DNA of 62,336 nt, from positions 110,463 to 172,798 of the forward strand of contig JBBIPP010000002.1 of NCBI GenBank assembly GCA_037442745.1, in the 5' to 3' direction. Shown piece by piece: positions 17,236 through 62,336 of this stretch; the first letter of the stretch is position 1, and each line of letters begins with the position of its first letter. The position numbers were made by a program, and so were the translations under genes. This stretch comes from an archaeon. Lineage in GTDB: Archaea > SpSt-1190 > DYHY01. The notes beneath the pieces are model-generated. The model was given only the letters and a program-made list of their open reading frames with translations. It made no database searches and was not told the origin of the DNA.

Positions 17236-18435
<1,200 letters not shown>

Positions 18436-18472
18436 GTTTTAAAAAAGAGGAAAAAAGGGGAAAAGGAACAAA

Positions 18473-18760
18473 ATGGAACAGAAAGAATTCGTCAAAGCCC
18501 TCTCCAAGGCAATCTCAGAGAACAAGCTCGTCTTAGGAACAGAAACAAACCTGAAAATGCTCTCGGCTGGAAAGCTTGAGATAATTGCATATTCCGAGAA
18601 CACCCCTGAAAAGGTGAAGAAGGCAATAGCGGAAAAGCTCGGAGGAGCAAAGGAACATCCGTTCTCCGGAAACAACATAGAGCTTGGCGAGCTCTCGAAG
18701 AGGCCCCACAGGGTTTCAGTAGTCGGAATTGCAAAAACCGAGAAGAAAAAAGCTAACTAG
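18473..18760 (+). CDS. rpl30e: Ribosomal protein L30e
   Basis: 95 aa (KLVLGTETNLKMLSAGKLEIIAYSENTPEKVKKAIAEKL). It sits in the canonical archaeal position between rpoA2 and nusA. Confidence 0.85.
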   Translation: MEQKEFVKALSKAISENKLVLGTETNLKMLSAGKLEIIAYSENTPEKVKKAIAEKLGGAKEHPFSGNNIELGELSKRPHRVSVVGIAKTEKKKAN

Positions 18761-18784
18761 TCCGGAAAAAATGGGGGAGAAAAA

Positions 18785-19258: not shown

Positions 19259-19329
19259 GGCGCCTTGTTTTTGGGTTTCTTCAATAAATCTCGAAAACAT
19301 ATTTAATTGGATTTTAATTGTTTGAGCTA

Positions 19330-21090: not shown

Positions 21091-21186
21091 TTTAGAAGAT
21101 TTCTTTTTTTCTCATTTATACTTGGACACAGTCTTTCCGTTATTAATTTTAGAGAAATTTAAAAGGGGCCTTTTCACTCCGGAAAT

Positions 21187-22017: not shown

Positions 22018-22538
22018 CTTTCTTCGGGAAGACCGAAATACTCAAGAGGTATTTCGTTGAAGAAATAACCACACCCAACAGATTTTACATATTCCAAAGT
22101 GTCCTTATATTCCGGCTTTTGGAACCAGTTATTCAGAACATATACATATTTTACCTGCGTTTTCAAGGAAGAGAATAGTTTTTTGTATTGTTTCAGCTTA
22201 AAGTCGCATGTTTGGAGTTTTTCATCAACTGATCTAGGGCTGTGCTGGAACTTCATCTCAACAATATGCACGACATTTCTCCTTAATATGAAAACTGCCT
22301 CGTCCGGAACAAGTTTTTTCGAGAGTATTTTTTTGTAGTCAATTCCTTTAGGAGCAAGGAATCCTTTGTAAAGGACGTGCTTTCAATAAAGTTCCGCAAC
22401 AACTTCTTTGTTGAAAAATATCTTGTTTCCAGAAACAGAATAACCTTTCAGTTTCCTGAATAAATCAGCTATTTTTACCCTATCCTCGAAAAGCAAGCCA
22501 ACCACTGTATTTGCGCCACCAAAACCACCCTTTTTCAT
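22011..22538 (-). pseudogene. PD-(D/E)XK restriction-endonuclease-like gene interrupted by an in-frame TGA at 22383-22385
   Basis: The minus-strand reading gives MKKGGFGGANTVVG...VAELY*KHVLYKGFLAPKGIDYKKILSKKLVPDEAVFILRRNVVHIVEMKFQH.... The PD...(19)...E-M-K arrangement fits a PD-(D/E)XK core. It is convergent with the Dam pseudogene. Confidence 0.5.
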
Positions 22539-22679
22539 AATCCCAAAAATATGATACGCAAATAAAATACCTTGCCTTGATTTTCCTCCAATCTAGCCAA
22601 AATCCCTTGCTTCAATTAGAAAACCCCTAAAATTACCTCCAAATACTTTAAATTCCGGCAACTCTTTCCCTTCCAAGAA

Positions 22680-23849
22680 ATGTTCCAAAAGCCCAAAAAT
22701 TCCCCCCCTTGCCCTAGGAAGAAAATCGAGTCACTGAACCTGTCAGCGAAAAGGGCGTCTGAGGGCTTCTCGCTTCTTTTCCTCGGAAAAACAATCCTTC
22801 TCTCAATATTCTTCGGATATTTCCTCCTCTACCACTCGCTCGGCTTTCCGGCAGGCCTCTCAATTCTCCTGATTTCATTCCCTCTGTTCTCGACAATTCT
22901 TTCCAAATACAGGGAATACCTGAAAATTAGGGAGATTTCCGGATTTTCCCGCCCGGACGAATTCCACACACTTTTCGTTGAAATCGAGCGCCAGAGACTT
23001 TTTTCAAAAATATCGCTTTTCCTTTCGGGCGGGCTCTCCCTAGCGTTCGGGCACATACTTTTTCCGCAATTCATCTCTGGATATCTCGACCTCTTCTCAG
23101 TCGAGGCTTCCGCATCCGCCTTCCTCGTTTTCTCCCTAGTTTTCCTCGGAACATTCATTGTCCCGGCATTCGCAAGATATTCCCTAGCAACGAAGACCAA
23201 AGGGACTGGCAGGCACGAGGAACTAGAAGAGACCCTCGGCCTTGTCGAACTGAAAACGCGGGCGCTCTCCCTTTTCCCGGCAATTTATTTCCTGATTTTC
23301 CTCCTCTTCCTCCTTGGAGGGGACAAAAAAATTCTTGTCTGGTTAATTGCAGTCTCATCACTCTTAATGGCAGGGGCAATAATTTCATTTTACCTGGAGT
23401 CAGAGCTTCTAATAAGAAAAAGACTGGCAAAGGAAGGGGTTCTTCCGGCAAAAGACGAAAGAATTGTGGCTACCTTCTTCGGAATAACCAGTTTGGGAAC
23501 TTATCCGAATTTCCACCTGCCGTTCTCAACTGAGCGGGAGAATTCCCTTCTCCTTACAAACAGGAGGATAGTTTTCCTCAAAATCCCCGGGAACAAAAAG
23601 ACTGCTCCTGAGATTGCGCGGGTTGGGAAGGAAATTGAGAGAAAGGGATTATCCGAACTCTTGAAACTGGGGAAAAATTCCCTTGAATATTTCGAGATTT
23701 CCCGGGCAGAACTCAAGGGAAAAGGGCTTGAGCTAGACATTGAGGCAAAGGACGGGCGGAAATACCGCCACCTTCTCCTAGATAGGGAGGATTCCGGGCG
23801 CCTCAGCGCCCACCTGAAAACGCAGATTTCCCACAAATTCACTGCCTGA
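22680..23849 (+). CDS. Polytopic membrane protein with a C-terminal bacterial-PH-like (YdbS/YdbT-type) domain
   Basis: Six or more TM helices are followed by LLLTNRRIVFLKIPGNKKT...LEYFEISRAELKGKGLELDIEAKDGRKYRHLLLD, a bPH-like pattern. GC content matches the host. Confidence 0.45.
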   Translation: MFQKPKNSPPCPRKKIESLNLSAKRASEGFSLLFLGKTILLSIFFGYFLLYHSLGFPAGLSILLISFPLFSTILSKYREYLKIREISGFSRPDEFHTLFVEIERQRLFSKISLFLSGGLSLAFGHILFPQFISGYLDLFSVEASASAFLVFSLVFLGTFIVPAFARYSLATKTKGTGRHEELEETLGLVELKTRALSLFPAIYFLIFLLFLLGGDKKILVWLIAVSSLLMAGAIISFYLESELLIRKRLAKEGVLPAKDERIVATFFGITSLGTYPNFHLPFSTERENSLLLTNRRIVFLKIPGNKKTAPEIARVGKEIERKGLSELLKLGKNSLEYFEISRAELKGKGLELDIEAKDGRKYRHLLLDREDSGRLSAHLKTQISHKFTA

Positions 23850-23913
23850 ACTTGCTGATTTTCCCTAGTTGAAAACTCTTAAAAAGGCTGGAACCCGCGG
23901 ATATTTCCGAAAA

Positions 23914-24351
23914 ATGGCAAAAAAACCGAAAGGCCTATTCGCAGCAGCAAAGCTCACAAAGAGAAGGAAGAAATTCCGGCTCTCCCAGAAGGGTTTCAGG
24001 CAGGTATTCTACGGAACGCGCCTCAAAGCAGACCCCCTGAAAAAGGCGCCACAGGCAAAGGGAATTGTCCTAGAAAAAGTCGGAGTTGAAGCGAAACAGC
24101 CCCACTCCGGAATCAGGAAGTGCGTCCGGGTACAGCTTTTGAAGAACGGAAAGCAGATTACAGCAATGACCCCGGGCGACAAGGCAATAACTTTCATTGA
24201 CGAGCACGACGAAGTCGAAGTCGAGGGAATCGGAGGGGCAATGGGCCGCGCAATGGGAGATATTCCGGGAGTGCGCTGGATTGTCACAAAGGTCAACGGA
24301 ATCGCGGTCCTCGAGCTCAGACGCGGAAAGAAGGAGAAGAAGAGGCGCTAG
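23914..24351 (+). CDS. rps12: 30S ribosomal protein S12
   Basis: [22 protein letters not shown]...[13 protein letters not shown]...VTKVNG. The start is set at ATG 23914 to give the usual 145-aa archaeal length. Confidence 0.85.
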
Positions 24352-25036: not shown

Positions 25037-25402
25037 CCTAGCCCCTGCCATGTTCCGAATGGCATTCGGGAAGCTTCTTACAACAATTGCATCCAAAATA
25101 AGCTCTCAATCCGGGAAATACTGAAACCGGCGAAAGCGCTTGAGAAAACCGGGATGAGAATGCGCTATTTCAACATCTGAGATCCTAACAAGTTCGATTT
25201 CAACACGCCAATTCACCGGAGAACCTCCCAGAAAAAGGAGATTTAGGACGCTTTCAATTCCCTGAAGAAATACATTGAAAAGTTCAGATAATTCCCCTAC
25301 TCAAAAAAGGACTGCCGGAAAAAAGTTGACTGGACAATTATGTGCATTTTTCTCCAAAGAGCATATAACCAAAAATGTTTTACTATTGCAGAGAGGGGAA
25401 GA

Positions 25403-26671
25403 ATGCGAATGTCTTCTAGCAGAAAAGGGGAAATAAGGATATTTTACTCGTTTTCCGGGGAGAAAAACGAGGGGTTCCTTCCAAAGGAGCTTCTTCATCC
25501 AGACAAGGACGCGTGCTTCCAAGGCAATTACACTGGAAAGGGGATAGGGAAGCTTGAAGATGTTTTCCTCCCAATTGAGCTCCAAATATACAGGGAGGAT
25601 TCCGAAGAGACTGATTTTTCCGGGGAAGTTTCCTTAGACTTCCTAAATCCATTGGGCTCGGAAGAGCTCTTCCTCCGGCTCTCCGAAGGACGGACAATCC
25701 CTGAGAAAAACCTCAGGGAATATTTCGAGACAAGGCTCAGGAGGGCAGTCAAGAGGAATGTGTCGAAGACTACCAACTTTTTCTTGGACATTCGATATGG
25801 GAACTTGGAAACGGTTTCAATTACGACAAATTTCTCAGGAGTCTCTCAAGGACAAATCCCAAATCTTGTGACAAGCCTTCTTGACGAATATACTTTAATT
25901 GTCGGGGACGTTTCAGCTTCCCTCGGAGTTGCCCCGAAAAGCAGGACAATTCACATTGTCTTCAAGAAGACCGACTATTTCGGCAAGACTTCAGTTGAGC
26001 CGGCCGACCTTGAGACCGAGAGCGCGATCGGGGAGACGAGGAAACTGCCTCCGGGGAATTCAGGAGACAAAAAATGGAAAGGGTCGAACCAGATATTCCC
26101 CCACCTTCCATTCGAGGCAATTGCGCTCTCTGGCCTTTCGGAAGAAATTGACGAGACATATCCGAGGGATGAGACTTTCTATATAGGACCTGTCCTTGAG
26201 GCGGAATATTCCCTTTCGGGGACGAATTCCCCGAGAGTTTCTGTTTCAGACACGTCCGGCTGGATGGACGTTCCAGTGAAGAAAATATCACTGGTCGGAC
26301 GGCCTTCCGCCGGAGGCTATTCAATTGACGCCAGTTTCGAGCTTTCCGCGAATCTTGACAAACATTGTGTCCAAAGACTCCGGAACAGGATGGACGATTG
26401 CGGAATAAAGTATTCCCAAGCCGGGCGGGAATTCTCCATTGTCGGATATTCCGCAAATTCAAAGGAATCTGCAAAGGAAGAGCTTTTCAGGGCAGCGGTT
26501 GACATGAAGACCGCGCTATCAGAGCTTTTCCCCCGAGAAGAGGGGCGTTTCTGGTTCGTTCCTGTCGGAATCCCCCTCGACAGGGGAAATCTCGGAAAGG
26601 AGATTGAAAGTGTCCTCTCCGGAAGGGCGGACTATGCCTGGAATATGAAAAGGAGCGCGAGAGGTAAATGA
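25403..26671 (+). CDS. Protein with no family recognisable from sequence (423 aa), first gene of a coupled pair inserted in the str operon
   Basis: The start is chosen at MRMSSS (25403), which has GAGGGG 7 nt upstream and a TATA-like CATATAAC about 35 bp upstream. No known motifs were recognised. Confidence 0.5.
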   Translation: MRMSSSRKGEIRIFYSFSGEKNEGFLPKELLHPDKDACFQGNYTGKGIGKLEDVFLPIELQIYREDSEETDFSGEVSLDFLNPLGSEELFLRLSEGRTIPEKNLREYFETRLRRAVKRNVSKTTNFFLDIRYGNLETVSITTNFSGVSQGQIPNLVTSLLDEYTLIVGDVSASLGVAPKSRTIHIVFKKTDYFGKTSVEPADLETESAIGETRKLPPGNSGDKKWKGSNQIFPHLPFEAIALSGLSEEIDETYPRDETFYIGPVLEAEYSLSGTNSPRVSVSDTSGWMDVPVKKISLVGRPSAGGYSIDASFELSANLDKHCVQRLRNRMDDCGIKYSQAGREFSIVGYSANSKESAKEELFRAAVDMKTALSELFPREEGRFWFVPVGIPLDRGNLGKEIESVLSGRADYAWNMKRSARGK

Positions 26672-27768
26672 CCGCAAGAGTGAATGTATTTTTCCCGGAG
26701 AGATTGGAGGAAATCGCGAGAACTGCGCTGGAGACCGGAAAAAAGCAGGAATATCTCGCGCCCGAAGGGCGGGTTCTAGAGAGCTTCAAATTGGACGTCT
26801 CCTGCAAAGTCCCGGATGGAAAAGGAAAAGACGCTGTATATACGGGAAAAGTCGGGATCGCCTTCCCAGACACATTCGACCCCGACAAGGTTTCGGGATA
26901 TTATCTTCAGATGGCAATGGAAGCAGTCCCCCAGATTCTCGGGAGAGATCTGAATAAATCGAAGGAGGGTTTCGAATCCTGCGAGGACGGCTCTTTCCTT
27001 TATTCCAAATACTGCTTCGCTTCAGACAATGAAGCCGAGTTTGCGGAATTCGCAAGGAAGCTTGTCAGGACATATTCCATCATTTGCGAGGAAATTCTCA
27101 AGGACGCCGGGTTTGACGGAAAAATTAACCTGAATTTTTCAAAGAAAAAGGATGCTTCTTCCGGAACCACCTCTCTTCCTGCGCCCAAATCCGAAAGAAA
27201 GAATTCAAAAGTCCTCCACCCTCCCCGCATTGTCCCCTTTGCAATCTACAGCTCGTCTGAAATTGAGAGGAGCCTTTCTTCAGGGGAACCGATGCACTTT
27301 TTCCTCGGAACTCCCACCCTCTACGAGATTGACCCTGTCAGGAACTGCGCGAAAGAGGTTTCCTTCGGCTGGAAGCTCCTCGATTCGAAAGTCAACGCAA
27401 GCCTCTCAATTTTCCCCGGAAAATGCGGAATGTATTCGGAGGAAATTTCTCTCTCGTTTCCTGACGGAGATTGCCCGGAAATTTTCAGGAACGAATACGA
27501 GGAGCTCGGCTATTCGGCCGTTGCAAATGGTAACCGGTTAATTCTGAAAAGAGATTCCCTCTTTCCGGTTGATGCGAAAGGGGTTGCCAAAGGAATTGCC
27601 GACTCTGCACTCAAAATAGCCTCAACAGTTTCCAATTTCTCAGTTCCCCAGGAAAGGGAAGGGCTTTATCTCGCCCTCCCGATTGCCGACTATCAGCCGG
27701 AGAAGCACATTCTCAGGGGGGCTGTTGCAGATTTCGTGCAAAAAGGAAAGGCATACGGTCTTGAATAG
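26668..27768 (+). CDS. Protein with no family recognisable from sequence (366 aa), second gene of the coupled pair
   Basis: ATGA overlap with the upstream gene. No recognisable motifs, TM segments or signal peptide. Confidence 0.5.
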   Translation: MTARVNVFFPERLEEIARTALETGKKQEYLAPEGRVLESFKLDVSCKVPDGKGKDAVYTGKVGIAFPDTFDPDKVSGYYLQMAMEAVPQILGRDLNKSKEGFESCEDGSFLYSKYCFASDNEAEFAEFARKLVRTYSIICEEILKDAGFDGKINLNFSKKKDASSGTTSLPAPKSERKNSKVLHPPRIVPFAIYSSSEIERSLSSGEPMHFFLGTPTLYEIDPVRNCAKEVSFGWKLLDSKVNASLSIFPGKCGMYSEEISLSFPDGDCPEIFRNEYEELGYSAVANGNRLILKRDSLFPVDAKGVAKGIADSALKIASTVSNFSVPQEREGLYLALPIADYQPEKHILRGAVADFVQKGKAYGLE

Positions 27769-42285: not shown

Positions 42286-42639
42286 ATGGCTGATTTCTCA
42301 ACCGAACTGCTAAAGGACCCTGTTTTCATAATAACAATTGCAATACTTCTCGTATATGCGTGGGGCTTGAAGGGCTTGGCGGAGAATATCCTGAAAAGAA
42401 TAACAGTGTCCGAGCGCTATCTTGTCCTCTCGAAGAAAGAGACATTTCTAATAACGCTCGCGTTCGCATTCTCATCAATATATATCGGCCTCGTGATGAT
42501 AGGAATTTACGAGGCAATCTCGGGGCTTATCCGCCCGACAGGTGCCCTGCGATACATTTCCCTCGGGTTCTTCGGTCTTGGAGCAATCCTTATTGTCCTT
42601 GGCGCCAAATGGGGAAAAGAGCTCCGGGAATTGTTCTAG
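42286..42639 (+). CDS. Small membrane protein (hypothetical)
   Basis: Three hydrophobic helices. Confidence 0.4.
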   Translation: MADFSTELLKDPVFIITIAILLVYAWGLKGLAENILKRITVSERYLVLSKKETFLITLAFAFSSIYIGLVMIGIYEAISGLIRPTGALRYISLGFFGLGAILIVLGAKWGKELRELF

Positions 42640-43610
42640 AAAACCTCCTTGATTTCGGCAGAGTCGACAATCCCGTCTCCGTTCAGGTCAATTCCTTCGA
42701 CAACAAGTCCCGATTTAGCGGAGCGCACGCGCTCCCCCATTAAAAGAAGGGCTAGGAGGGCTGAGCGGGTTCCCGAGAACCTTTTTCCGGCAACAACGAC
42801 AATCTCCTTTTCAGGGCTCCAGGGGTTCTTCGTCCTTGCGACAATTCCACAGTCCTCCTCCGAATAATACTTTCCGCTCCGTTCAGACAGTATGTCCCAA
42901 TTGTGCTCCCTCTCGAAGCGAACGGGAAGACTCTCGTTCACAAGCCCAACAAGCATGTTCGTTATCGGGCCCCCCAATAGGACCAGGTTCTCTTTCCTTT
43001 CGCTCTCCCGTAGCTCGGTGTCTGTTCGCACAATAGGCCTTCCGATTGACGCGAACCCGGAGATTACCGAAGCCATTTCCCCCGAATAATGCCCGTCCCT
43101 TGCCCGCGCCCTGTTCGGGCCGTGGGAATCGGGAGAGCCGACAACAAGGAGACCGTCGAAATCCCCCTCCTTTCCAACAAAGCCCTCAAACATTTCAGGG
43201 ACATTCCTCGCACCGCCCTTTGACTTGAGAGCGAGCGCGAAATCCTTTCCCCCGGGAAGCTTCACAGCAAACGCAGTTCCTGTGACGCTGAAATAGTTCG
43301 CAATCCCCCCGCGTCGCTCCTCCCGTTTTTCCACCTTCACAAACCCCCCTGCCCTTAGAGCCCGCATGTGATAGAAGACCTTTTGCTCGGGGATTCTCAG
43401 TTTCTCCGCTAGCTTTGTCGGATAAGAGGGCTCCTTTGAGAGCTCAGAGAGAATCTGCATTCTCATTGGATTCAGAAGATAATGGAATTTCTCCTCCGAG
43501 ACAAGAACACCCTTCCTTGCGAGGTATTTTCCGCGATCCTCTTCTACCACCAACACCATTTCAATACCCTTTGTGTCAAATTTATAATACTTGTTGAAAG
43601 AACTGTACAA
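42636..43610 (-). CDS. ArsR-type HTH domain protein with a C-terminal domain of unknown function
   Basis: PMRMQILSELSKEPSYPTKLAEKLRIPEQKVFYHMRALRAGGFV is an ArsR/SmtB-like wHTH. The true start may be the internal ATG at 43559. Confidence 0.5.
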   Translation of the reverse strand: MYSSFNKYYKFDTKGIEMVLVVEEDRGKYLARKGVLVSEEKFHYLLNPMRMQILSELSKEPSYPTKLAEKLRIPEQKVFYHMRALRAGGFVKVEKREERRGGIANYFSVTGTAFAVKLPGGKDFALALKSKGGARNVPEMFEGFVGKEGDFDGLLVVGSPDSHGPNRARARDGHYSGEMASVISGFASIGRPIVRTDTELRESERKENLVLLGGPITNMLVGLVNESLPVRFEREHNWDILSERSGKYYSEEDCGIVARTKNPWSPEKEIVVVAGKRFSGTRSALLALLLMGERVRSAKSGLVVEGIDLNGDGIVDSAEIKEVF

Positions 43611-46287: not shown

Positions 46288-48843
46288 ATGGGCAGGGGAA
46301 ATGGCAGTTTCGCAGTTTTATCGGAAAAGCCGGATATGCAGATAGGGATTGTGGGTCCGACCGGAGTTGGCTCGGTATACTATGCCCCCGGGACTTTTGA
46401 CCGCATTGCCAGCTATTTCGGAGAGGTGGCTCCCGATGCCGACGCAATTGTAATGTCCGGTCTCGTTGCGCAAGTTCCAAGCGAACATACCAAAAGGCTA
46501 ACTGCCAGAGCACTTGAACCAAATGTCGACGTTGTTGATGACATTTCCGCCGACTTTGGCGCGGAATTAGGGGGCTTTTCACAATATCTTGGAGTTCCAA
46601 AGAACGGGGAAGATGAGCCTGCAAGAAAGCCGAAAAAATCAGACGTTATTCCGGTCTATTACGCGCTTGACCCGAACGATTTTCGGAACATTTACGAAAT
46701 TGCCAACTGCAAATTCAACCAGTTAAAGCAGATCCAGAACACCGAAAAGGAGAAACGCCACCGCCTTGAAAAGGGAAGGGAAGCCTGCCTTGCAATAAGC
46801 ATGGCTCTCCAGATGCAAACTGAGGTTGCAGAAGAGCTAAAGGCGCTCCTAGCGTCAGACGCCGAAAAATATGCTCAGGAATTGGCTGAAATAGAGTCGA
46901 GAGCGAGGCGTGCTGGAAGGGCACTCGAAAATTACCGCGAAAGGATAGAGAACATAACGATGGCAATTGCCGAGATAAAAAAGAAGCTCAAGAATTCCCC
47001 TGCCGGAAAGGCGGAGGAATTGGAGGAGAAGATTGAAGGAGCCCTCAAGAAAATAAAGAAATCAAAGACCGAAATCGCAAAACAACAGGCTCGCCTCGAG
47101 AAATTGAAGGGAACTGATGCGGAAGGTTTGGTGGAAGCCCTCACAACATATGACAACATTTCCGCGACAATTGCCGCAATAACAACTGAAGAGGCGAGAG
47201 CGGTAAAGGAACTCAGTTCAGCTGACAAGAAGCTGGAAGAACTGACTGACAGCATGACTGGCTTCAAGCAGGCAATAGAATATTTCACAAAGAGAGCGCG
47301 GGCGCTCCCGTCAGTCCAGCAGGATGTTGACGACGAATCGGTCATACATTATAAAAAGCTTCTCGAGGACCTCCTCGAGATAAAGATAAAGCTGGTCACG
47401 TCTTCTGAGACTGTAAAAATAGGGAAAAAGAACGTCAATATTGCCGGAAGGCGGGCTAGCGCACTATCAAGCCAGAGCGCGACTGCAGGCGACCTTGCCG
47501 CAAGCGTCAATTATGCAAGGGTCAAGCTCCAGGAAGGAACGCCCCAGGCGGACTTTTACATTACTGTTGCTCCCGGAACAAGCAACCTTGCGATTACAAC
47601 CGACATGAACACTGCCGAACGAGAGCCAATCTACCACTTCAAGGCGCCCAAGGCAATGAAAAAGGACGGCATTAAGGCGGCCGCAAAGAAGCTTGTCAGG
47701 TCGCTTGAAACCGATGCGGCATCTGGGAGATATCCTTATACTGACGGAGTAAGCGTTCTTGAGGGATACCGCGATGGAAGCGTTGTAGTGAGATACGCTT
47801 CCCTTGAAAGCATTGAAGGGAAAAAGGAAAAGTTCGGAAAAGCGGTAAGGGTCCTGAACCTGACAGATACCCACCTTAACTCATCGACGCCTATTGGAAT
47901 TGACACTCCCGAGACACTCCTTGACGCTGTCGAGAAATTCACACTAAAATACTGCAAAGACGCAAGGAATGCGGGAGACGTTGTTGTGATAAATGTCGGA
48001 GGGGACCTTGCTCAGTGGGGGCACTACCCGACCGCGCCAACCGAAGGGTGGAGGGCAACCGAGGCCGAGAAGAAGAAGCTCGATCGGGCATACCGTGACA
48101 GTGCAGTGACAAAGGAGGATGTCCTCAACTCGATTGCTAAACTGGACGGAGCCCTTGGTGAGAAAAACATGACTGTTCAGGAAGCGAACATCCAAGCGCG
48201 CTTCGGCCGGCTGATGAACGCAGTCCTAAGGAACCCGAACGTCACGGTTTTCATTGCCGGAGGGAACCACAGCCTCCACAAAGACCCTGACAGGACTGAA
48301 GCCCAGTTCCTATACGAGGGTATTGATGAAAAGCTACGCTACAGGGCTTTCCACGAGGAACAAATCGGAGCGCCATCGGAAGTTGTCGGAGCTCTAGGTC
48401 TCATAAAACCAGACGAGCCCGAAATTTTCAGGCGGGGCACTGACGGGGCATACGTCCTGAGAGTGAACGAAGGAGGGGCGTCTAGGGACATACCTTTCTG
48501 GTCAAGCCACTACAACAGTCCAAGTCCCACCGCAGTCGAGTCTTCAATTGCTAGGGCAGTGAATGAAAATAGAGCCGTCCTATTCACCGCAAGGGGGGAT
48601 ATGCATGTCGGGGGAGCGGCAGTTGCCGGAAAAGCCCTTCACTTGGCGGGCCTTGCGCTTCAGCCAAGGAACGACTATACTGACACAAAGTCACTAGGGG
48701 AATCAATGCGCGGAATACAGGCGGCGACAATCTACGGGGAGGGGTGCTATGACATTGCGTTCGTTCCGGAAAAGGCCCTCCTTGGCTCTGTGAAAAGCTA
48801 TGCGCAAAGGGAAGTGCATTCAATAGCAAGGCTGAACGCCTAG
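46288..48843 (+). CDS. Large (851 aa) protein with no family recognisable from sequence. It has an N-terminal domain, a ~300-aa coiled-coil and a C-terminal calcineurin-like metallophosphoesterase-like domain.
   Basis: The coiled-coil region is rich in E/K/A heptads (aa ~170-470). C-terminal motifs appear in phosphoesterase order: LNLTDTHL (DxH), VINVGGDLAQWGH (GD), FIAGGNHSLHKD (GNH), GDMHVGG. Confidence 0.5.
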   Translation: MGRGNGSFAVLSEKPDMQIGIVGPTGVGSVYYAPGTFDRIASYFGEVAPDADAIVMSGLVAQVPSEHTKRLTARALEPNVDVVDDISADFGAELGGFSQYLGVPKNGEDEPARKPKKSDVIPVYYALDPNDFRNIYEIANCKFNQLKQIQNTEKEKRHRLEKGREACLAISMALQMQTEVAEELKALLASDAEKYAQELAEIESRARRAGRALENYRERIENITMAIAEIKKKLKNSPAGKAEELEEKIEGALKKIKKSKTEIAKQQARLEKLKGTDAEGLVEALTTYDNISATIAAITTEEARAVKELSSADKKLEELTDSMTGFKQAIEYFTKRARALPSVQQDVDDESVIHYKKLLEDLLEIKIKLVTSSETVKIGKKNVNIAGRRASALSSQSATAGDLAASVNYARVKLQEGTPQADFYITVAPGTSNLAITTDMNTAEREPIYHFKAPKAMKKDGIKAAAKKLVRSLETDAASGRYPYTDGVSVLEGYRDGSVVVRYASLESIEGKKEKFGKAVRVLNLTDTHLNSSTPIGIDTPETLLDAVEKFTLKYCKDARNAGDVVVINVGGDLAQWGHYPTAPTEGWRATEAEKKKLDRAYRDSAVTKEDVLNSIAKLDGALGEKNMTVQEANIQARFGRLMNAVLRNPNVTVFIAGGNHSLHKDPDRTEAQFLYEGIDEKLRYRAFHEEQIGAPSEVVGALGLIKPDEPEIFRRGTDGAYVLRVNEGGASRDIPFWSSHYNSPSPTAVESSIARAVNENRAVLFTARGDMHVGGAAVAGKALHLAGLALQPRNDYTDTKSLGESMRGIQAATIYGEGCYDIAFVPEKALLGSVKSYAQREVHSIARLNA

Positions 48844-54420: not shown

Positions 54421-55020
54421 ATGGGCGTTATTGTATACAAGGCCAATATCGGGACCTCAATAACCGGTCCTGATGGCAAGCAACGCCTTCTCCTCGCATT
54501 CGCCCGGTTAATGTCAATATTCTATTCCGGGTCAATAAAGTCAATTAACATGGAAGCAGTTGCCCCGATTGAGGTTGTCTATAAAATTCCAAACCGGGCG
54601 CAAATTGCCCTGAAAACGAAGGATTTCACTGAAGCGCTGATAAAGGATCTTGTCCAGGCGGAGACATTCGAAATTTCCGTTTTCGTAAGCGTTGTCCAGA
54701 TGAAAATAACGCACAACAAAAAAGTGCACAACGACAATGCTGTGAACATTGAATACAGGGCTGAATACACCGAATACATGTCAAAGGCGGCTCTCGGAAT
54801 TGTCCTCCACAAGAACATTGTTGCAACAACTGTTTTTTATGAGCGTGCGCACAACAGGATTGAGCGAGTCTATGACCTCTCAATGACGCTTCTACGGAAA
54901 TTCCTCGGGGACACTCTGATTTCCGGGCTCCAGAGGATAAACGTTGAGAAATTCAACAGGGATTTCATTTACTTCAACCTGTTCGGGTTCGCATTCGTGA
55001 TAAAGAGGAGGTTCCTTTAG
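54421..55020 (+). CDS. Hypothetical protein (199 aa)
   Basis: ORF with an RBS-like GGAGGGAAAG upstream. No motifs. Confidence 0.4.
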   Translation: MGVIVYKANIGTSITGPDGKQRLLLAFARLMSIFYSGSIKSINMEAVAPIEVVYKIPNRAQIALKTKDFTEALIKDLVQAETFEISVFVSVVQMKITHNKKVHNDNAVNIEYRAEYTEYMSKAALGIVLHKNIVATTVFYERAHNRIERVYDLSMTLLRKFLGDTLISGLQRINVEKFNRDFIYFNLFGFAFVIKRRFL

Positions 55021-56101: not shown

Positions 56102-56177
56102 ACTTAAATCACCTGTTCTTTCCCATTTCGGAAAAAGAGCCACATTAATATAGTAGCTTATTCTCAAAACTTTTGGG

Positions 56178-57353
56178 ATGGTGTTGGAGAAGGGATATGT
56201 GTTTTCACATTCCCATCAGATTTCTAAACGAAGAAAGGGCGCTGCCCTGACAGGGGAGATGATTTCCCTAATAATTGTCTCAATACTCCTTGTTGCGGCA
56301 ATTGGGGGAATTGCCTCCGAAATAGCCTTTCTTGCAACAACCGCACATTTCCTCGAAGCCAAAATAATTGCAGGAGCAGTTGCCGGAGCTCTCACATCAG
56401 TCTCCTCCGCCCCCCAGAACGGGGTCTATTGCATCACTCTTCCGGGAACCTTCCAATACAAGGTCGCTTTCGGAATTGGGACTGAAAAGGCATCAGTCGG
56501 ACCCGCCCTTGTCGATCCTCCGGAACTGGGAGAATATTGCCCGGTAACCCCCCCGAGCTATTCTGCATACGAAAAATACCTGACAGGGCCCTACAAGGAG
56601 TTCTTCGATTCGGCTTCCGAGAAGTATGCTGTCCCGCTTCCTTATATTCTTGCAATTGCATATACTGAATCGGGAATTGAGCACTATGACACTTCCGGGA
56701 ATGTGAAGGATTCGGGCTCTGGGTATATCGGGATAATGATGGTATCAGACGACAACCCGGAAAACCGCGAGCCGGAAGGGAACATTAATTCCGGAGTTGC
56801 CGAGCTACGAAACAAGCTCGACTATTTCGGAGGCGACTTTCAGGCGGCAGCCGCGGCATATAGCGGGGGGACTGCCGGGGCTGTCGAATATATCAGAGCT
56901 CTCGGAGGGGCGGGTTCCTGGGTCAAAAACCTCCAGGCCGCGGAATTCATGGAACTTGAAATTTACGAGGACATAAACCCCCTTCTAGCCAATCTGCATT
57001 TCCCGGACGGCTCAGAATATACAGTAGAAAAGCAGAACGCATGCGGAGTCGCAAGGAACACTGCGAACGCGCGCTTCTTCGAGTCAATGGGCCTTGGGAC
57101 AGCAAAGTACGGGTTCGTTGCAGTTGTCCGGGAAACCGACAAATCCGGGGCTATCTCATATGTACCTGTCACAACATTCGAGCCCGGCGTTTTCAAAATA
57201 CCGTCCGGCGGGAAATACACTCTTGTGATGAAAAAGTCACTCTTCAGAATGCCCCATGGCGGATATAAGGAGGCAATACGGTTCGCTGTCCGGGAAGGGG
57301 GACTTCGGGAAGCCGGGTGCCAGGCCGAGACTCCGGCAATCTGCGGGTTTTAG
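56178..57353 (+). CDS. Membrane-anchored lytic transglycosylase (SLT-domain, lysozyme-like) protein
   Basis: After a TM anchor (LIIVSILLVAAIGGIA) comes YILAIAYTESGIEHYDTSGNVKDSGSGYIGIMMV...AAYSGG, which fits the SLT E-S...S-x-G-x-x-G-h-M-Q...AYN-G pattern. Confidence 0.55.
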   Translation: MVLEKGYVFSHSHQISKRRKGAALTGEMISLIIVSILLVAAIGGIASEIAFLATTAHFLEAKIIAGAVAGALTSVSSAPQNGVYCITLPGTFQYKVAFGIGTEKASVGPALVDPPELGEYCPVTPPSYSAYEKYLTGPYKEFFDSASEKYAVPLPYILAIAYTESGIEHYDTSGNVKDSGSGYIGIMMVSDDNPENREPEGNINSGVAELRNKLDYFGGDFQAAAAAYSGGTAGAVEYIRALGGAGSWVKNLQAAEFMELEIYEDINPLLANLHFPDGSEYTVEKQNACGVARNTANARFFESMGLGTAKYGFVAVVRETDKSGAISYVPVTTFEPGVFKIPSGGKYTLVMKKSLFRMPHGGYKEAIRFAVREGGLREAGCQAETPAICGF

Positions 57354-57370
57354 GAGGAGTGAGAAAGGGA

Positions 57371-58624
57371 ATGACTGAAAGGAAAATGAAAGGGAGGAAA
57401 GCGCAGCAGCCCTCAATCCTTCTTCTCGCCCTGATTTTCCTCGTCACCTTGGTGGGGCTTGCGGTAATAGTCCTCCTTGCGAACGCAGACCTTCTCTCAA
57501 CAATTGAGCGGCATAACGAGAACAGGATGGCAATACTCGTTGCAACAAGGATAACTGGCGCTCCCAATTTCGTTATGGACACAGGATACTTGGGCCTCCA
57601 CAAGAACGTCCTTGACACAAGGCGCCTTGACATTTATTCCAAGAGCTTCATGCGCTCGCTCTCCAACTATGCGAATTCCGGGGGCGCGACAAACCTCCTT
57701 CCCCAAACTCCCTATGAGCTCAGGTCAAGCTGCTATTCCTGGATTGCCGTTATCCGCAACCCTCAGGAGGACAGGCTCTGGGTTTTTGGAGAGTATGAAA
57801 TTCTCCAAGAGCCCCTGAAAACGGAAATAAGGGAAGCAGCCCTCGATGCATATGCAAGTAAGCGGAACTATTATGCCGGAGCGGGCTCGACATCCTATTC
57901 CCGGGCACAGCAAATGAACACAATGTTAGAATCAATGGGCGGATACACAATCCCTGTCACAATTGCTCTCTACGAAGGGGACCAGATAAAGAAGTTCGAC
58001 CTTGGAACGCTCCAGGTTTTCGTCAGAAAGACCCCTGCCTGCACTGACTCGGACAAGCAAGAGGAGGAGTATATAAAGGCAATGACATTGGTTGAGAAAT
58101 ACTATGATTTTCCGCAGGTGTCCCGCTCATTCAGGAACACCCCCCTCCCCCACATTCCGAGATTCGACCATTCAGGAGGAGCAGGGAGATATTTGAGATG
58201 CGAGGAACTTCCAATAGAGGAGATTTCAAAACACTTCACTTTCGAGGAGGCTGAGCTTGTGGCCGGAATGACTTCATTGACTGAGAGAATTGAATCCGCA
58301 GGCGAGGCTTCCGGAGTTGACCAGAATTTCCTCCGGGCAGTGCTCTTCCATGAGACTGGCCTTGATCCGGAAATTCTCGCATACACTGACATCGAAGCAA
58401 TGGCAGGTTCAATCAGGCAGGAAGCGGACTATTTCGCGGACAAGGTCTCTGCATCCCAATGCGCTCCCAATTATGTCGCAATATCGAGGCTTGTTGGGCC
58501 GACAGAGACTGATGAATACATTACCGGGACATTGGCTCCCCTTCCGGAGACAAGAAGGTCGGCCGAACGAATTATTTATTATTATACTGCGTTTTCGTCC
58601 TGCTTTGGAGTTGAGGGAAGATGA
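57371..58624 (+). CDS. Membrane-anchored extracytoplasmic protein of unknown function
   Basis: The start is MTERKMKGRK, preceded by GGAGG. It has a TM helix (ILLLALIFLVTLVGLAVIVLLA). The segment NFLRAVLFHETGLDPEILAYTD is a weak lysozyme-like hint. Confidence 0.45.
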   Translation: MTERKMKGRKAQQPSILLLALIFLVTLVGLAVIVLLANADLLSTIERHNENRMAILVATRITGAPNFVMDTGYLGLHKNVLDTRRLDIYSKSFMRSLSNYANSGGATNLLPQTPYELRSSCYSWIAVIRNPQEDRLWVFGEYEILQEPLKTEIREAALDAYASKRNYYAGAGSTSYSRAQQMNTMLESMGGYTIPVTIALYEGDQIKKFDLGTLQVFVRKTPACTDSDKQEEEYIKAMTLVEKYYDFPQVSRSFRNTPLPHIPRFDHSGGAGRYLRCEELPIEEISKHFTFEEAELVAGMTSLTERIESAGEASGVDQNFLRAVLFHETGLDPEILAYTDIEAMAGSIRQEADYFADKVSASQCAPNYVAISRLVGPTETDEYITGTLAPLPETRRSAERIIYYYTAFSSCFGVEGR

Positions 58625-59355
58625 AACTCGTGAGAAACACGGCAGGTTGCCGGAGCCGAAAATCGCTTGTTGCAGGAACCCTTCTTGTAGTTCTCCTGAC
58701 CGCAATACTAATTGGAGGAGGGATTTTCCTCCTTGTTTCGACCCGCCTAAAAGTACAACTCAACATTCTTGAGGAATTGGCCGAGCGCGATCAAAAGCCG
58801 ACTCTTCAGGCTCTCTCATATTCGACTGTCGGGTTCATGCAGAACAGTCCGATTTCGTTCTATGATCTTGTCTCGCTTTCAGCAGTCCTAGGAAGGGACG
58901 ACTATATTCTCGGGGGGAACCAAGTATCTGCTGAGGAGACTGTTGACAGGCAGATTGACTATTTCTCGGAAACAAGCCTCGCAGCATATCCAATTTCCTG
59001 CTTTGACTATGCGCTCTCCGGGGAAGACGGAACAATAATTTTCAACAGAGTAATATCGTCCGGAACGCTTCCCGCCGAGACCGAATCCTGCGACGAGATT
59101 GTGGCAAAGCTGGGTGATGCGGGACTGGTTGCAACAGCGAAAAGGGGATATTCTTATCTTATACCTCTTCCTCCTTTCAAGAGCGGTTCAGCTAGGCTAA
59201 CTGCCCAGTTCATATACGATTTGGAGGCTTCTGAAGGCGCGTCAAAAATCCCTGACTCTGAGAGGCCCTTCTGCAAGGAGGAAGGAGTTGAAGCGGGAGT
59301 TGCTGAAGAGTGCTGTAGCGGAAGAATTGAGAAAGGGAGGTGCACAAGGGGATGA
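58621..59355 (+). CDS. Membrane-anchored extracytoplasmic protein of unknown function
   Basis: ATGA overlap with the upstream gene. TM helix (LVAGTLLVVLLTAILIGGGIFLLV). Cys-rich C-terminus. Confidence 0.4.
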   Translation: MKLVRNTAGCRSRKSLVAGTLLVVLLTAILIGGGIFLLVSTRLKVQLNILEELAERDQKPTLQALSYSTVGFMQNSPISFYDLVSLSAVLGRDDYILGGNQVSAEETVDRQIDYFSETSLAAYPISCFDYALSGEDGTIIFNRVISSGTLPAETESCDEIVAKLGDAGLVATAKRGYSYLIPLPPFKSGSARLTAQFIYDLEASEGASKIPDSERPFCKEEGVEAGVAEECCSGRIEKGRCTRG

Positions 59356-62336
59356 GCGCCAAGGTAAGGAAGGGAATCGGTGCCGTAGCAATAATAGGTA
59401 TCCTGGTAATTCTTGTAGCTGTCGGAACTATCGGATATCTCTGGGTTCTTTTCAACAGGCCAATTGACCTCTATTCAACAATGGAGACTTCCGAGAACAA
59501 GTTCATCAGGGCAATACACGTGATGGAGGAAGCGCGCCTCTATATCAAAAAGGCAATGGACTATTCGCTCCAACTCGCTGTAATTGAGGTCTCGGACAAC
59601 GGAGGATTCCTGCGGGCGTCGAAAACAACTGCATCCGGAAAGCCGTATTTGACAACCCTGAAAGACGATTCAACATTCCCCGACTATTGCCCTGACGAGG
59701 ACAAGCGCTTTGAGATGATAATTAATCCGAACGATGTTACTGGAGCGCTTGAACCAGTAATTACAAGGGTTCTCGAGAACATCAAGGCGAACATCCCCGA
59801 AAAACTGAACGAATACGCCGACCTCTTCACAGAGTTCGAGGTCTCAAACAAGGTGAATATTTCAATATATGACAAGGCAGTTGGCGAAGAAGGCTTCAAG
59901 AAGCACTGCCTTTTCATGAATTCCCTATCATCCGACCTGACAATTGCTTCCGAAGCCGGAGCGTCCTGGGTGAAGGTTCCTGTCAGGTGGAAGGACATTG
60001 AGATAGTTCCCAATTCAAACGTCTATGACTGGAGCGCCCTTGACCTCTTCTATGAGAAAGCGGAGGCTGAAAACATTGAGGTAATCCCGGTTCTCGGGTG
60101 GGCTCCGGAATGGGCGCTCTCTGAGAAGGACAAGCCGGCGGACCCTTCCTATAACTACGGGCCTGACCCAAGGTATTTCACCAATTTCGCGAAATTCGCG
60201 GAGGCAATGGTTGCGCATATTGAAGGCAAGGGCTGGAATGTCAATTATTTGATCCCCTGGCTTGCGCCGAATGTCGGGCGGAACTGGTCTCCCAAGGGAA
60301 TTGAGCCAATAGAGTTCGCGCGCCTCTTCAAGCAGACATCCCTATATGTCCGGGACGCGAACCCGTCAGTAAAGATAATTTTCCCGGCAACTCTTGAGGT
60401 TCCCACCTGCGGATATGACAGATATCCTTCAGACCCCCGGCCGTTCTCAACATATCTTGACAATTCCCAAGCGTGCGAAACTGTCGAGTGCGGAACCAAC
60501 AACTGCCTCGGCCTCCGGTATGTCGAGAGATGCGGAACGAGCTATTCCACCCGAGAGAACTTGGAATGCCTCCCGACGCTTGATGTCGATTGCCCGAACA
60601 ACGACGCAATAAAAAAGATTGGCGAACCTGCCTGCAAATCATCCGACTATTGGCAGCCATATATGTATGATGTTTCTCTCCGGCCGGAGTCCCCGACAAG
60701 ATTCAGGTATTTCACTCTCTCGGACCTTGACTTTTTGCGGGAAATGTATTTCCACGGCCTATCTGACTATTTCGACATATTGGAATTCCAGGCAACAGGG
60801 ACTGAAGCCCCCCAAGAAGAGCTCGAGGACTGCGACACTGAAAATCCTTCCACATGTAAGGGAGTCGGGCGCCTGAAGCTCTACTATGACCTTCTCTGGG
60901 ACAACCGCGATGAGGACAAGGAGATTTTCGTCAATGCCGAGTGGCCCGGTTTGACTCCGGCCTCTAAAAGCGAAGGGTTCGCAAGGAATTTCTACATACT
61001 TTCAGCAGATCCTGTGAGCGGAGTTAACACAGGCCCAATATGCGTTCCTGAGAGCTATTCAGAGGTTGTCCGTACTCAAGTGAAGGACGAGACATTCTCT
61101 CCTTGGGGAGGGATTTCCGCCTCCGCCAACCACACAACAAAGGTCTCGACAATAAGGCGGGCGAATCAGGAAATGTTCGCAACCGGTTTCGGAATGGTCA
61201 CTGCTGACGACAATTCGACCGGAAAGCTCGGTTTCTCAATTACCGAGATTATCAAGGAGGCCCGACTAATTGCAAAGGATCCCGAGAGGGCAATAATGTC
61301 TTTGGGCGCAACCTGCTCAGCTGTCGAGGGCGGAGAGAAATGCCCTTCGGGATTCTTCAAGAGGTCGGATACCGCTTCCTGCGACACAGGAACTTTCATC
61401 TGCCCTGACGGGCTGACTGGGAGCGGAAGCGGGGACGAATTCACCTGCGTTGCCGAACTCTCAGCTCCCTATACCTTGGACTGCAAGGTGAAGACAGCTG
61501 TCTACAACTATTCATGCGCAGTCGACTCTGCCGAATATCCGGGAAGCGACCTTGACAGGGAGGAGGTCAGGCCGAACTCTTGCTATATTGACGATGAAAC
61601 AGGGGCAATGGGAATATGCACAGCAACTCCATCCAGGAACGAGTACGCTTCCTGCGAGGAAATGAACCCAGTGTCAAGGACAAAGGGGCCAACTGAATTC
61701 ATCTGGTGCCGAAACATTGACGACAACTGCTGTCAATGGGCTTTCTCCCAATCGGGCGGAGGGCCTCTCGGATTCGAGATGGAAGAGAGCGTTGCTGCCG
61801 CTACTCCCGACGCGCAGTGCAGGTGCATAAAACTCTCAGAAATAATGAGTCCGGACATCAAAGACTGGGGCCCAGTTCTTCCAGATGGACAGCTTCCTCC
61901 GGGAAGCCCTGACACTTTTTGGCCTCAATATGCAGTCGAATGCCCGAAAGAATCAGGAATTTCCGCGCCAAAGCCTGAAGGAATGAACTGCTGTGAAACT
62001 GGTGGAACTGGATATGTTGATGACCCGATAGTTGGAACTGGGCACATAGGTTGCAATTGGCGCCTAGGAGCGGAGATGTGGGCGGCAAACGACCTGACTG
62101 CATTTGACCTTGGGACAACATACCAATTGGGAAACGTTGTTCCCGGTTCCGCCTACTATTCCGGATGCAGGAACGACAAGCTACAAGGACATATTGAAAT
62201 ATGCAAAAAAGCCGATTCAGTTGGAGACGACCCCAAGGTATGCCCCGGATTTAAAGAAGTTCTTAATGACAACTCCGCTGTTCAGGAATGGATTGATTAT
62301 TGTCAGGGAACTGCTGGAGCTAATTGTGAGAAGCTG
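59352..62336 (+). CDS. Large Cys-rich extracytoplasmic protein of more than 995 aa, partial because it runs off the window. It has an N-terminal TM anchor and a glycoside-hydrolase-like (beta/alpha)8 region.
   Basis: The frame is open from ATG 59352 (ATGA overlap with the upstream gene) to the window end. A TM helix (IGAVAIIGILVILVAVGTIGYLWVLF) is present. The segment WVKVPVRWKDIEIVPNSNVYDWSALDLFYEKAEAENIEVIPVLGWAPEW resembles GH5/GH42-type barrels. The C-terminal 600 aa hold more than 40 Cys. Confidence 0.5.
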   Translation, partial: MSAKVRKGIGAVAIIGILVILVAVGTIGYLWVLFNRPIDLYSTMETSENKFIRAIHVMEEARLYIKKAMDYSLQLAVIEVSDNGGFLRASKTTASGKPYLTTLKDDSTFPDYCPDEDKRFEMIINPNDVTGALEPVITRVLENIKANIPEKLNEYADLFTEFEVSNKVNISIYDKAVGEEGFKKHCLFMNSLSSDLTIASEAGASWVKVPVRWKDIEIVPNSNVYDWSALDLFYEKAEAENIEVIPVLGWAPEWALSEKDKPADPSYNYGPDPRYFTNFAKFAEAMVAHIEGKGWNVNYLIPWLAPNVGRNWSPKGIEPIEFARLFKQTSLYVRDANPSVKIIFPATLEVPTCGYDRYPSDPRPFSTYLDNSQACETVECGTNNCLGLRYVERCGTSYSTRENLECLPTLDVDCPNNDAIKKIGEPACKSSDYWQPYMYDVSLRPESPTRFRYFTLSDLDFLREMYFHGLSDYFDILEFQATGTEAPQEELEDCDTENPSTCKGVGRLKLYYDLLWDNRDEDKEIFVNAEWPGLTPASKSEGFARNFYILSADPVSGVNTGPICVPESYSEVVRTQVKDETFSPWGGISASANHTTKVSTIRRANQEMFATGFGMVTADDNSTGKLGFSITEIIKEARLIAKDPERAIMSLGATCSAVEGGEKCPSGFFKRSDTASCDTGTFICPDGLTGSGSGDEFTCVAELSAPYTLDCKVKTAVYNYSCAVDSAEYPGSDLDREEVRPNSCYIDDETGAMGICTATPSRNEYASCEEMNPVSRTKGPTEFIWCRNIDDNCCQWAFSQSGGGPLGFEMEESVAAATPDAQCRCIKLSEIMSPDIKDWGPVLPDGQLPPGSPDTFWPQYAVECPKESGISAPKPEGMNCCETGGTGYVDDPIVGTGHIGCNWRLGAEMWAANDLTAFDLGTTYQLGNVVPGSAYYSGCRNDKLQGHIEICKKADSVGDDPKVCPGFKEVLNDNSAVQEWIDYCQGTAGANCEKL

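Follow-up and report, generated by a model that had tools for sequence, protein, structure and literature searches.

A membrane-anchored lytic transglycosylase operon on an archaeal chromosome: a candidate cell-tethered complex for degrading bacterial murein

What use would an archaeon have for a set of membrane-anchored proteins that carry peptidoglycan-degrading domains? The question is raised by a four-gene locus at the end of a 62,336-nt stretch of the genome of an uncultivated archaeon whose lineage was sampled in anoxic lake water (lineage SpSt-1190, DYHY01; assembly GCA_037442745.1, contig JBBIPP010000002.1, positions 110,463 to 172,798), here called the window. A preliminary description of the locus had recognized an SLT lytic transglycosylase-like protein and a giant, cysteine-rich, glycoside hydrolase-like protein, and had considered a laterally acquired apparatus for attacking cell walls or remodelling the surface. 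The analysis presented here assigns a probability of about 0.55 to the reading that the locus is a vertically inherited chromosomal operon for a cell-tethered, murein-degrading surface complex, which would act on bacterial walls in a contact-dependent manner. The earlier observations are largely real, except that the first gene overlap and the cysteine count turned out to be wrong and that a recent lateral acquisition and the proposed band-7 membership found no support.

The four genes lie consecutively on the + strand where they had been placed before, and the list of open reading frames (ORFs) and the translations agree on 56178-57353, 57317/57371-58624, 58621-59355 and 59352 to beyond 62336. 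Their parts, and the element that precedes them, are as follows.

56145..56152, + strand: putative operon promoter, a TATA-like box TTAATATA read from the sequence about 30 nt 5' of the gene 1 ATG
56178..57353, + strand: gene 1, 391 aa, with an anchor, a Cys-bridged beta region, the SLT/GH23 domain and a C-terminal domain
57371..58624, + strand: gene 2, 417 aa from the ATG at 57371, with an anchor (residues 10-46) and an extracytoplasmic part
58621..59355, + strand: gene 3, 244 aa, with an anchor running into a long helix (residues 13-55) and a C-terminal CxnCCSGxnGRC motif
59352..62336, + strand: gene 4, the first 995 aa of a giant of ~2000-2200 aa, ATGA-coupled and cut by the contig end
59352..59876, + strand: gene 4 anchor module, residues 1-175, with R-K-G, a hydrophobic stretch and a helix with ENxFIxAxHVxEEARL
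59919..61031, + strand: clan GH-A-like TIM-barrel of gene 4, residues ~190-355 and ~436-560, from an exhaustive search and a coverage map
60417..60656, + strand: family-specific Cys-rich insert that splits the barrel, residues 356-435 (80 residues), from the coverage map
61302..62336, + strand: Cys-rich region of gene 4, residues 651-995, with 24 Cys by counted positions

By its domain and motifs, gene 1 is a bona fide SLT/GH23 lytic transglycosylase with a predicted activity. Residues 143-239 (nt 56604-56894) match Pfam SLT (PF01464) over profile positions 3-105 of 117, with E=8.1e-10 and 38.7 bits (gathering score 21.3), so that the SLT-type motif set noticed in the preliminary description is significant at the level of the profile; PF01464 had been annotated beforehand on all four orthologues of gene 1. 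The motifs YTE164S165G, GYIGIMM and AAYSGG are invariant or near-invariant across these four orthologues, the catalytic pair E164-S165 being invariant. A profile search against solved structures retrieves, in this order, the SLT domain of a phage tape-measure protein, MltC, Slt70 and T7 gp16, and the gene 1 glutamate aligns with the catalytic Glu region of the tape-measure domain. The SLT domain is preceded by the anchor (residues ~24-56) and the Cys-bridged beta region (~80-125) and is followed by a C-terminal domain (~265-391). The small N-terminal region contains two invariant cysteines, and neither this flanking region nor the 125-residue C-terminal domain matched any family. An AlphaFold2 model of gene 1, built from the four-sequence alignment, has a mean predicted local distance difference test score (pLDDT) of 30.9, and profile-profile comparison among genes 1-4 reveals no significant relation between them.

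The second candidate enzyme is expected in the distal part of gene 4. As described before, this gene exceeds 995 aa and is cut by the window, with 995 codons and no stop. The proposed extension of the contig gains no sequence from assemblies with identical genes, which all stop at the same point or earlier, but the complete architecture could be taken from full-length orthologues: L007 (2189 aa), L005, which equals P0138 (2018 aa), and P0139 (2152 aa, 38% identical), the last of which was retrieved only by the exhaustive search. When the gene 4 fragment was searched by a word-indexed method, no homologue came up despite the existence of these orthologues, which the exhaustive search did retrieve. 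The latter found only two strong relatives of residues 1-995 among 1.84 billion representatives, and NCBIfam and PHROGs returned nothing for the fragment. All three full-length orthologues end in Peptidase_M23 (PF01551), which is present in two copies in L005, with E-values of 6.6e-17, 1.8e-34 (two copies) and 4.1e-16 and scores of 61.9, 118.2 and 59.4 bits, where the gathering score is 28.7. The motifs HNG[VL]D and HLH, corresponding to the HxxxD/HxH zinc-ligand and catalytic motifs, are conserved in the three proteins, and zoocin A, LytM, lysostaphin and ShyA are among the matching solved structures. The gene in the window ends at residue 995, before the position of the M23 domain, which is seen in the orthologues only. 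Its presence there strengthens the idea of an apparatus that attacks cell walls.

Between the Cys-rich region and the M23 domain, the orthologues contain modules of ~300-400 residues in which E-S, G-x-G-L-F-A-L and N-x-G-x-G motifs are invariant. The two modules of L007 and the single one of L005 are homologous to each other by blastp (E=2e-25). Pfam SLT is matched by one of the copies with E=0.0076, and a profile of the three copies has Slt70 as its top solved structure, with both motifs in register, at E=0.09. A single-sequence search of module 2 against solved structures found nothing, and profile-profile comparison of these modules with gene 1 indicates no significant relation. On motifs and profiles together, the distal modules of the giant are probable SLT-like domains. 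The distal cassettes differ from one protein to the next, with two SLT-like modules and one M23 domain in L007, one SLT-like module and two M23 domains in L005, and a second GH-A-like domain with one M23 domain in P0139. The cassette arrays occupy 11384-17953 in L007 and 13235-19291 in L005.

The fragment in the window contains 37 cysteines (3.7%), with 24 falling in residues 651-995 and 10 in 341-560; other proteins of the window have only 0-7. The C-terminal region is Cys-rich as described, though more than 40 cysteines had been attributed to it. Divergence is concentrated in residues 843-903 (nt 61878-62060), where dN, the rate of nonsynonymous substitution, is 0.35-0.44 versus 0.00-0.19 in the other 60-codon windows. 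All assemblies of the organism, and that of the relative at 85% identity, have a contig end within gene 4, and in three independent assemblies the breaks fall at residues 995, 961 and 362 of the giant (L009 15700-16089; ends of L002 and L004). The position of the breaks beside the hotspot suggests strain-level hypervariability or recombination in the giant gene. Moreover, P0139 and an elongation factor 2 (EF-2) 83% identical to that of the window possibly lie on one contig, and if so, the comparison suggests that the giant, at 38% identity, outpaces the core genome. The divergence hotspot and the shuffling of cassettes fit a protein for target recognition.

The exhaustive search of gene 4 yields 875 library proteins at E<=1e-3, and of the best 150 of these 875 almost all cover residues 190-355, while many also cover residues 436-500. 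Eight listed matches that were run through Pfam all match GH5, GH39, GH42 or GH10, with weak to moderate scores, some of them below the curated cut-off. The best solved structure for the barrel profile is the GH39 beta-xylosidase 4ekj (E=4e-5), and a direct Pfam search with the gene 4 fragment gives GH42 at no better than E=0.097. The TIM-barrel hydrolase-like segment of the preliminary description is indeed homologous to clan GH-A (GH39 beta-xylosidase, GH5, GH42), with which it shares the beta1-beta6 part of the barrel and the signatures W..R/K..W, P.W and W..PN. It is not, however, a canonical enzyme. The acid/base column holds Glu in 137 of the 150 homologues (WNEPN), whereas the gene 4 family has L-A, Q-F or P-G-I in place of the Glu of N-E-P: the sequence is WLAPN in the window, with Ala also in L007 and L009, WQFPN with Phe in L005, and WVPGIN with Gly/Ile in P0139. 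At the position of the nucleophile in strand 7, where few homologues are aligned, Glu is shifted by one residue in three members and replaced by Asp in L005, and P0139 is in another register; the members of the gene 4 family do not agree in the nucleophile motif. The 80-residue insert is a further departure from clan GH-A. As a consequence of the loss of the acid/base Glu, the barrel should not hydrolyse its ligand by the canonical mechanism, and it is probably a glycan-binding module rather than an enzyme. It offers a clean example of a glycosidase fold turned into a probable binding module.

How these domains would be held on the cell is indicated by the N-termini. In 19-residue Kyte-Doolittle windows with a threshold of at least 1.6, each protein shows a single hydrophobic segment (residues ~20-56, 10-46, 12-43 and 3-36 in genes 1-4) and none elsewhere, in agreement with the single anchor described earlier at the start of each. 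The sequence R-[KR]-[G/A/S], often followed by Q, directly precedes a hydrophobic stretch of 22-30 residues in the four proteins and in all orthologues. Each product is predicted to be inserted into the membrane via this uncleaved N-terminal anchor, so that the catalytic parts would stay on the outer face of the membrane. The head of gene 4 is also found on P0183 (370 aa, Cys-rich), on P0250 (675 aa, with a C-terminal Peptidase_C39_2 domain) and on P0152. Its occurrence on unrelated proteins marks it as a reusable anchoring head and suggests a family of surface enzymes with one anchoring or assembly module.

The same N-termini could, with small probability, be class III signals that are cleaved after R-[KR]-[G/A/S], in which case a short pilus- or bindosome-like filament, or its tip, would present the murein hydrolases as a 'lytic pilus'. 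With the archaeal class III proteins, such as the type IV pilins and the components of the Sulfolobus bindosome, in which functional non-pilin proteins are displayed through class III N-termini, the four proteins share a short basic N-terminus, a small residue and a long hydrophobic helix. The signature recurs in all four proteins, in their orthologues and in the unrelated proteins with the gene 4 module, and it differs from the ordinary short Sec-type signal peptides of four other exported proteins of the window. In gene 3 the N-terminal helix of 43 residues is continuous and is predicted with confidence. In addition, a series of four anchored proteins that ends in a giant resembles the operons of minor pilins, and bacterial modular pilins may carry functional domains. 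However, none of the four proteins matches an S-layer or pilus-assembly family in Pfam or NCBIfam, a match that the preliminary description had named as one that would refute its reading, and no pilin, archaellin or class III model in these collections is matched either, even when ten isolated N-termini are compared with Pfam at E up to 10. Among the Pfam-scanned ORFs of the window, which leave out a few of at least 180 aa, no match to a prepilin peptidase, a PilB/FlaI ATPase or PilC/FlaJ is present. The positive-inside rule would by itself place basic residues ahead of any signal anchor, and the fold models of genes 1 and 3 are unusable. Since neither class III proteins nor their machinery are matched and basic residues are to be expected anyway, the uncleaved signal anchor is kept as the default. 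The furthest-reaching form of the alternative, with prepilin-type signals and a lytic pilus or bindosome that drills through bacterial peptidoglycan with the giant as a diversifying, cassette-swapping warhead, is a long shot. If true, archaea would possess a machine for cross-domain predation or episymbiosis that has not been described before, and an enzymatic cargo would for the first time be assigned to an archaeal type IV filament.

A single promoter 5' of gene 1 would drive the four translationally coupled genes, or five if the next gene in the orthologues is counted. The distance of ~30 nt between TTAATATA and the gene 1 ATG is consistent with archaeal promoter geometry and implies that the first gene may be leaderless or nearly so. 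Shine-Dalgarno-like sites are present in the operon. Genes 3 and 4 each overlap the preceding stop codon by ATGA (58621-58624 and 59352-59355), which is the geometry of translational coupling. These two overlaps had been described correctly, but the one reported at 57317/57353 depends on a GTG start of gene 2 at 57317, which is unlikely. Orthologues of gene 2 start at the residues encoded from ATG 57371 (MTERKMKG...), and GGAGGAG precedes this ATG right after the TAG stop of gene 1; genes 1 and 2 are therefore spaced by 17 nt and do not overlap. The fifth gene of the orthologues is conserved and lies 3' of the giant, past the position where the window ends (L007 17959-18579; L005 19305-19904). 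It encodes 199-206 aa with an N-terminal signal peptide, the motif YCGDxxCSKGERATTCPxDC and a C-terminal membrane anchor with a basic tail.

The products of genes 2 and 3 are conserved, carry an anchor and contain cysteines, but neither matches anything in Pfam, NCBIfam, PHROGs or the solved structures of the Protein Data Bank (PDB). A single-sequence AlphaFold model of gene 3 (pLDDT 43.9) is confident only for the continuous helix of residues 13-55. The C-terminus of gene 2, with the motif LRAVLFHETG, was considered as a degenerate SLT domain and was rejected as it has no statistical support. The tight translational coupling and the co-conservation indicate that genes 2 and 3 act together with the enzymes, most likely as conserved anchored subunits with a scaffold or adaptor role.

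The operon is located on an archaeal chromosome. The window also encodes the split RNA polymerase subunits rpoB''/B' and rpoA'/A'', rps7, EF-2, EF-1alpha, GlmS, Alba and an aspartate/ornithine carbamoyltransferase. EF-2 has a few relatives at 61-88% identity, followed by a plateau at 54-59% that includes Aenigm-, Woese- and Altiarchaeota, Methanococci and Thermococci, and its best named matches are only 54-57% identical. With EF-2 at no more than 57% identity to any named lineage, the host belongs to a deep-branching lineage, for which a DPANN affinity is plausible. By look-up of exact protein sequences in other assemblies, the operon was recovered in two further assemblies of the same organism, in a relative at 89% gene 1 identity that includes a contig from the anoxic water of Lake Kivu (Ga0116204), in a relative at 85% and in an archaeal metagenome-assembled genome at NCBI at 59%. 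The common order is GT2, GT2, a 199-aa protein, band-7, SLT, gene 2, gene 3, the giant and the small membrane protein. Measured against two close relatives, gene 1 has a ratio of nonsynonymous to synonymous substitution rates (dN/dS) of 0.09-0.12, gene 2 of 0.08, gene 3 of 0.09 and gene 4 of 0.135, so that all four are under purifying selection. These values of 0.08-0.14, together with the conserved order, show that the four are real genes and not chance ORFs. The family is very rare: it is found in one genome of 185,579 species representatives and on one JGI contig, and scans of genomes and metagenomes re-found only JAZDJS010000003 and the Lake Kivu contig.

The lateral acquisition considered in the preliminary description gains no support as a recent event. 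In GC, GC3 and codon usage the four genes fall within the spread of housekeeping genes (RNA polymerase, EF-2), with distances of 0.10-0.13 versus 0.06-0.135, and are thus native in composition when compared with a deviant methylase island in the window. The same chromosomal context is kept in relatives that are only 59% identical in gene 1. BLAST finds no relative of gene 1 in phage or plasmid collections and none of gene 1 or gene 4 in viral contigs, and the relatives of gene 1 form only four clusters among 5.8 billion proteins. Several of these data also bear on an origin as the remnant of a virus or a conjugative element. SLT and M23 domains are typical of tape-measure proteins, tail lysins and transfer-associated wall hydrolases; the best solved structure for the SLT domain of gene 1 is a phage tape-measure protein, and the PHROG matches are tail lysins, endolysins and tape-measure proteins. 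These matches are, however, limited to the SLT and M23 domains. Native codon usage, the same context in diverged relatives, the missing counterparts in phage, plasmid and viral collections, the N-terminal membrane anchor on every product and the lack of an integrase or other mobile-element gene nearby are all contrary to such an origin, which is essentially excluded.

The band-7 gene just upstream, which had been suggested as part of the same surface-organisation region, finds no support as a member of the operon. It is separated by a 76-nt AT-rich spacer with a TATA-like box, and its dN/dS of 0.02-0.04 reflects a far stronger constraint. Its synteny with the operon is shared by the whole neighbourhood and is therefore not specific. 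Directly 5' of band-7 in all relatives lies the 199-aa protein (54421-55020), with no membrane segment or family match.

The proposed target of the complex has to be deduced from what the enzymes could cleave and from what the host seems to possess. Gene 1 would cleave the strand of N-acetylmuramic acid (MurNAc) and N-acetylglucosamine (GlcNAc) between MurNAc and GlcNAc by the lytic transglycosylase mechanism, as its domain and Glu predict. The giant product of gene 4 would give reach and bind the target through the dead GH-A barrel and its Cys-rich, fast-evolving stalk. If the distal part resembles that of the orthologues, a zinc-dependent M23 endopeptidase would cut the peptide cross-links, accompanied by the probable SLT-like modules. 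Acting together, SLT and M23 would break murein in its glycan strands as well as in its peptides, and tethering would make this action dependent on contact. No genes for the synthesis of murein or pseudomurein are seen in the window, and the chemistry is unfit for pseudomurein; from these two points we infer the bacterial wall as the target. The complex would accordingly be directed at the walls of neighbouring bacteria and would breach or grip a host or prey cell.

Two alternatives accept the domains but assign them another target or purpose. One is that the domains are repurposed for a substrate other than murein: they might act on the wall or the surface glycoprotein of a host archaeon, or remodel the cell's own envelope. 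M23 would then act as a general Gly/Ala-specific endopeptidase, and the SLT and dead GH-A domains as binders of glycans. The known hosts of DPANN archaea are themselves archaea (PMC8204110), the GH-A domain has itself become a pseudo-enzyme, domains that bind peptidoglycan were not found, and the operon adjoins glycosyltransferase genes. Even so, this alternative is unlikely. Under purifying selection, the SLT and M23 domains retain their catalytic residues without exception. Lytic transglycosylases require the C6 hydroxyl of MurNAc, which the talosaminuronic acid of pseudomurein does not possess, and to our knowledge no archaeal surface polymer serves as a substrate of SLT enzymes.

The other alternative is nutrition: the anchored enzymes would digest peptidoglycan necromass in anoxic water for its amino sugars and peptides. 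The enzymology would be the same, tethering would keep the products near the cell, and peptidoglycan is a recognised pool of substrate for heterotrophs (PMC11044484). This is doubtful, as no genes for uptake or catabolism of anhydro-muropeptides or amino sugars are seen adjacent to the operon, the neighbours being glycosyltransferases, band-7 and Alba. Furthermore, a fast-evolving giant with shuffled cassettes suits recognition or an arms race more than bulk depolymerisation, and the window has GlmS for the synthesis of amino sugars de novo.

Attack on bacterial walls is thus the preferred function, and several points weigh against it. The wall polymer of the host itself is judged from 62 kb of its genome only, and the DPANN affiliation of the host is plausible rather than established. 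The activity of gene 1, the topology of the anchors and the bacterial target are predictions from sequence; likewise, an M23 domain in this very genome is predicted from an 85%-identical orthologue. Pfam detects no LysM, PG_binding_1 or SH3 domain in gene 1, in gene 4 or in the full-length orthologues. Both structure predictions have low confidence (pLDDT 31 and 44), the statistics of the additional SLT-like modules are borderline (Pfam E=0.0076, PDB E=0.09), and no function can be assigned to genes 2 and 3, which account for ~40% of that part of the operon which is complete. Of the surface apparatus for attacking cell walls proposed in the preliminary description, the anchoring and the SLT domain are retained and M23 in the orthologues is added, whereas a recent lateral acquisition and an active glycoside hydrolase are not.

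Some further features of the window lie outside the operon. An island of low GC at 18000-24000 (GC 0.40-0.44 versus ~0.49-0.52), between rpoA'' and rps7, contains an N6_N4 DNA methylase (20260-21090, - strand) and an ORF at 21442-22017, with codon distances of 0.20-0.24, and looks like inserted restriction-modification or mobile DNA that breaks the RNA polymerase/ribosomal protein cluster. At 42636-43610 (- strand) an ArsR-type HTH_20 domain is joined to an S_layer_C-like outer domain, an unusual pairing. Long ORFs with no Pfam match lie at 46288-48843 (851 aa), at 25340-27768 (443 and 366 aa, just upstream of EF-2) and at 6042-7526 (494 aa, with a signal peptide). Relatives keep the 851-aa ORF where the contig reaches, with 851 aa in L009 and 846 aa in L005, and it is cut at the contig start in L006 and L007. 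The ORF at 10648-11202 overlaps tRNA-Asp (10734-10809) and is probably spurious.

The physical attack of archaea on bacteria is a young question, for which there are genomic hints in DPANN archaea and one proven family of secreted haloarchaeal enzymes. The locus described here adds a different design, in which both bond types of murein would be targeted by enzymes held on the membrane of the producer. The ectodomain of gene 1 and the M23 domain are clonable candidates for contact-dependent lysis of bacteria by an archaeon, and the sequence of the operon may help in the search for a bacterial partner of this uncultivated lake archaeon. Large lytic transglycosylases of DPANN archaea were reportedly first mentioned by Rinke in 2013 and Castelle in 2015. 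Large extracellular proteins of this kind in Woese- and Pacearchaeota have been proposed to attack bacteria (PMC8204110, PMC9723730, PMC10936187), GH23 genes are known from lake Woesearchaeota (Vigneron et al. 2022, PMC9723730), and small secreted hydrolases of archaea, of the M23 and glucosaminidase types, have been shown experimentally to kill bacteria (Strock et al. 2025, PMC12352652). A lytic transglycosylase in an archaeon is therefore less unexpected than the preliminary description had assumed, having been described in Woese- and Pacearchaeota already, and bactericidal M23 enzymes are also on record. The gene set is a nearly orphan version of an idea published for small archaea; its combination of M23, SLT-like and pseudo-glycoside hydrolase domains is among the features that distinguish it.

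A close parallel is the family of large DPANN lytic transglycosylases, fam00969. These are likewise very large extracytoplasmic SLT/GH23 proteins of uncultivated archaea from anoxic water, for which the binding or degradation of bacterial walls in episymbiosis or predation has been proposed. In contrast to their hosts, the host of the window has an EF-2 at most 57% identical to that of Woese- or Pacearchaeota and is not demonstrably either. The firm SLT domain is located here in a separate protein of 391 aa, which sets it apart from the family as described, and the giant adds M23, a dead GH-A barrel and Cys-rich regions, with an N-terminal part of 995 aa that is nearly unique. In addition, the proteins are encoded here by an operon of four to five genes for anchored products.

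The Woldo/Danwoldo enzymes of Halogranum salarium (PMC12352652) share with the present system an archaeal M23 domain of the zoocin A/lysostaphin type aimed at bacterial peptidoglycan. Those enzymes are small, Tat/Sec-secreted and diffusible, contain PG_binding_1 and are patchily distributed and often plasmid-borne, whereas the present proteins are predicted to be membrane-tethered, giant and multi-enzyme, and are chromosomal and syntenic with no recognisable peptidoglycan-binding domain. The bacterial and phage lytic transglycosylases, including Slt70, MltC, T7 gp16, tape-measure SLT domains and VirB1-type enzymes, resemble gene 1 in the profile match and in the E-S, G-L-M-Q and A-Y-N-x-G motifs. 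Some of them are also membrane-bound and work with endopeptidases. Unlike these enzymes, gene 1 occurs in an organism with no evident murein of its own, has no close sequence relatives, and carries its SLT domain between flanking domains that are unique to it.

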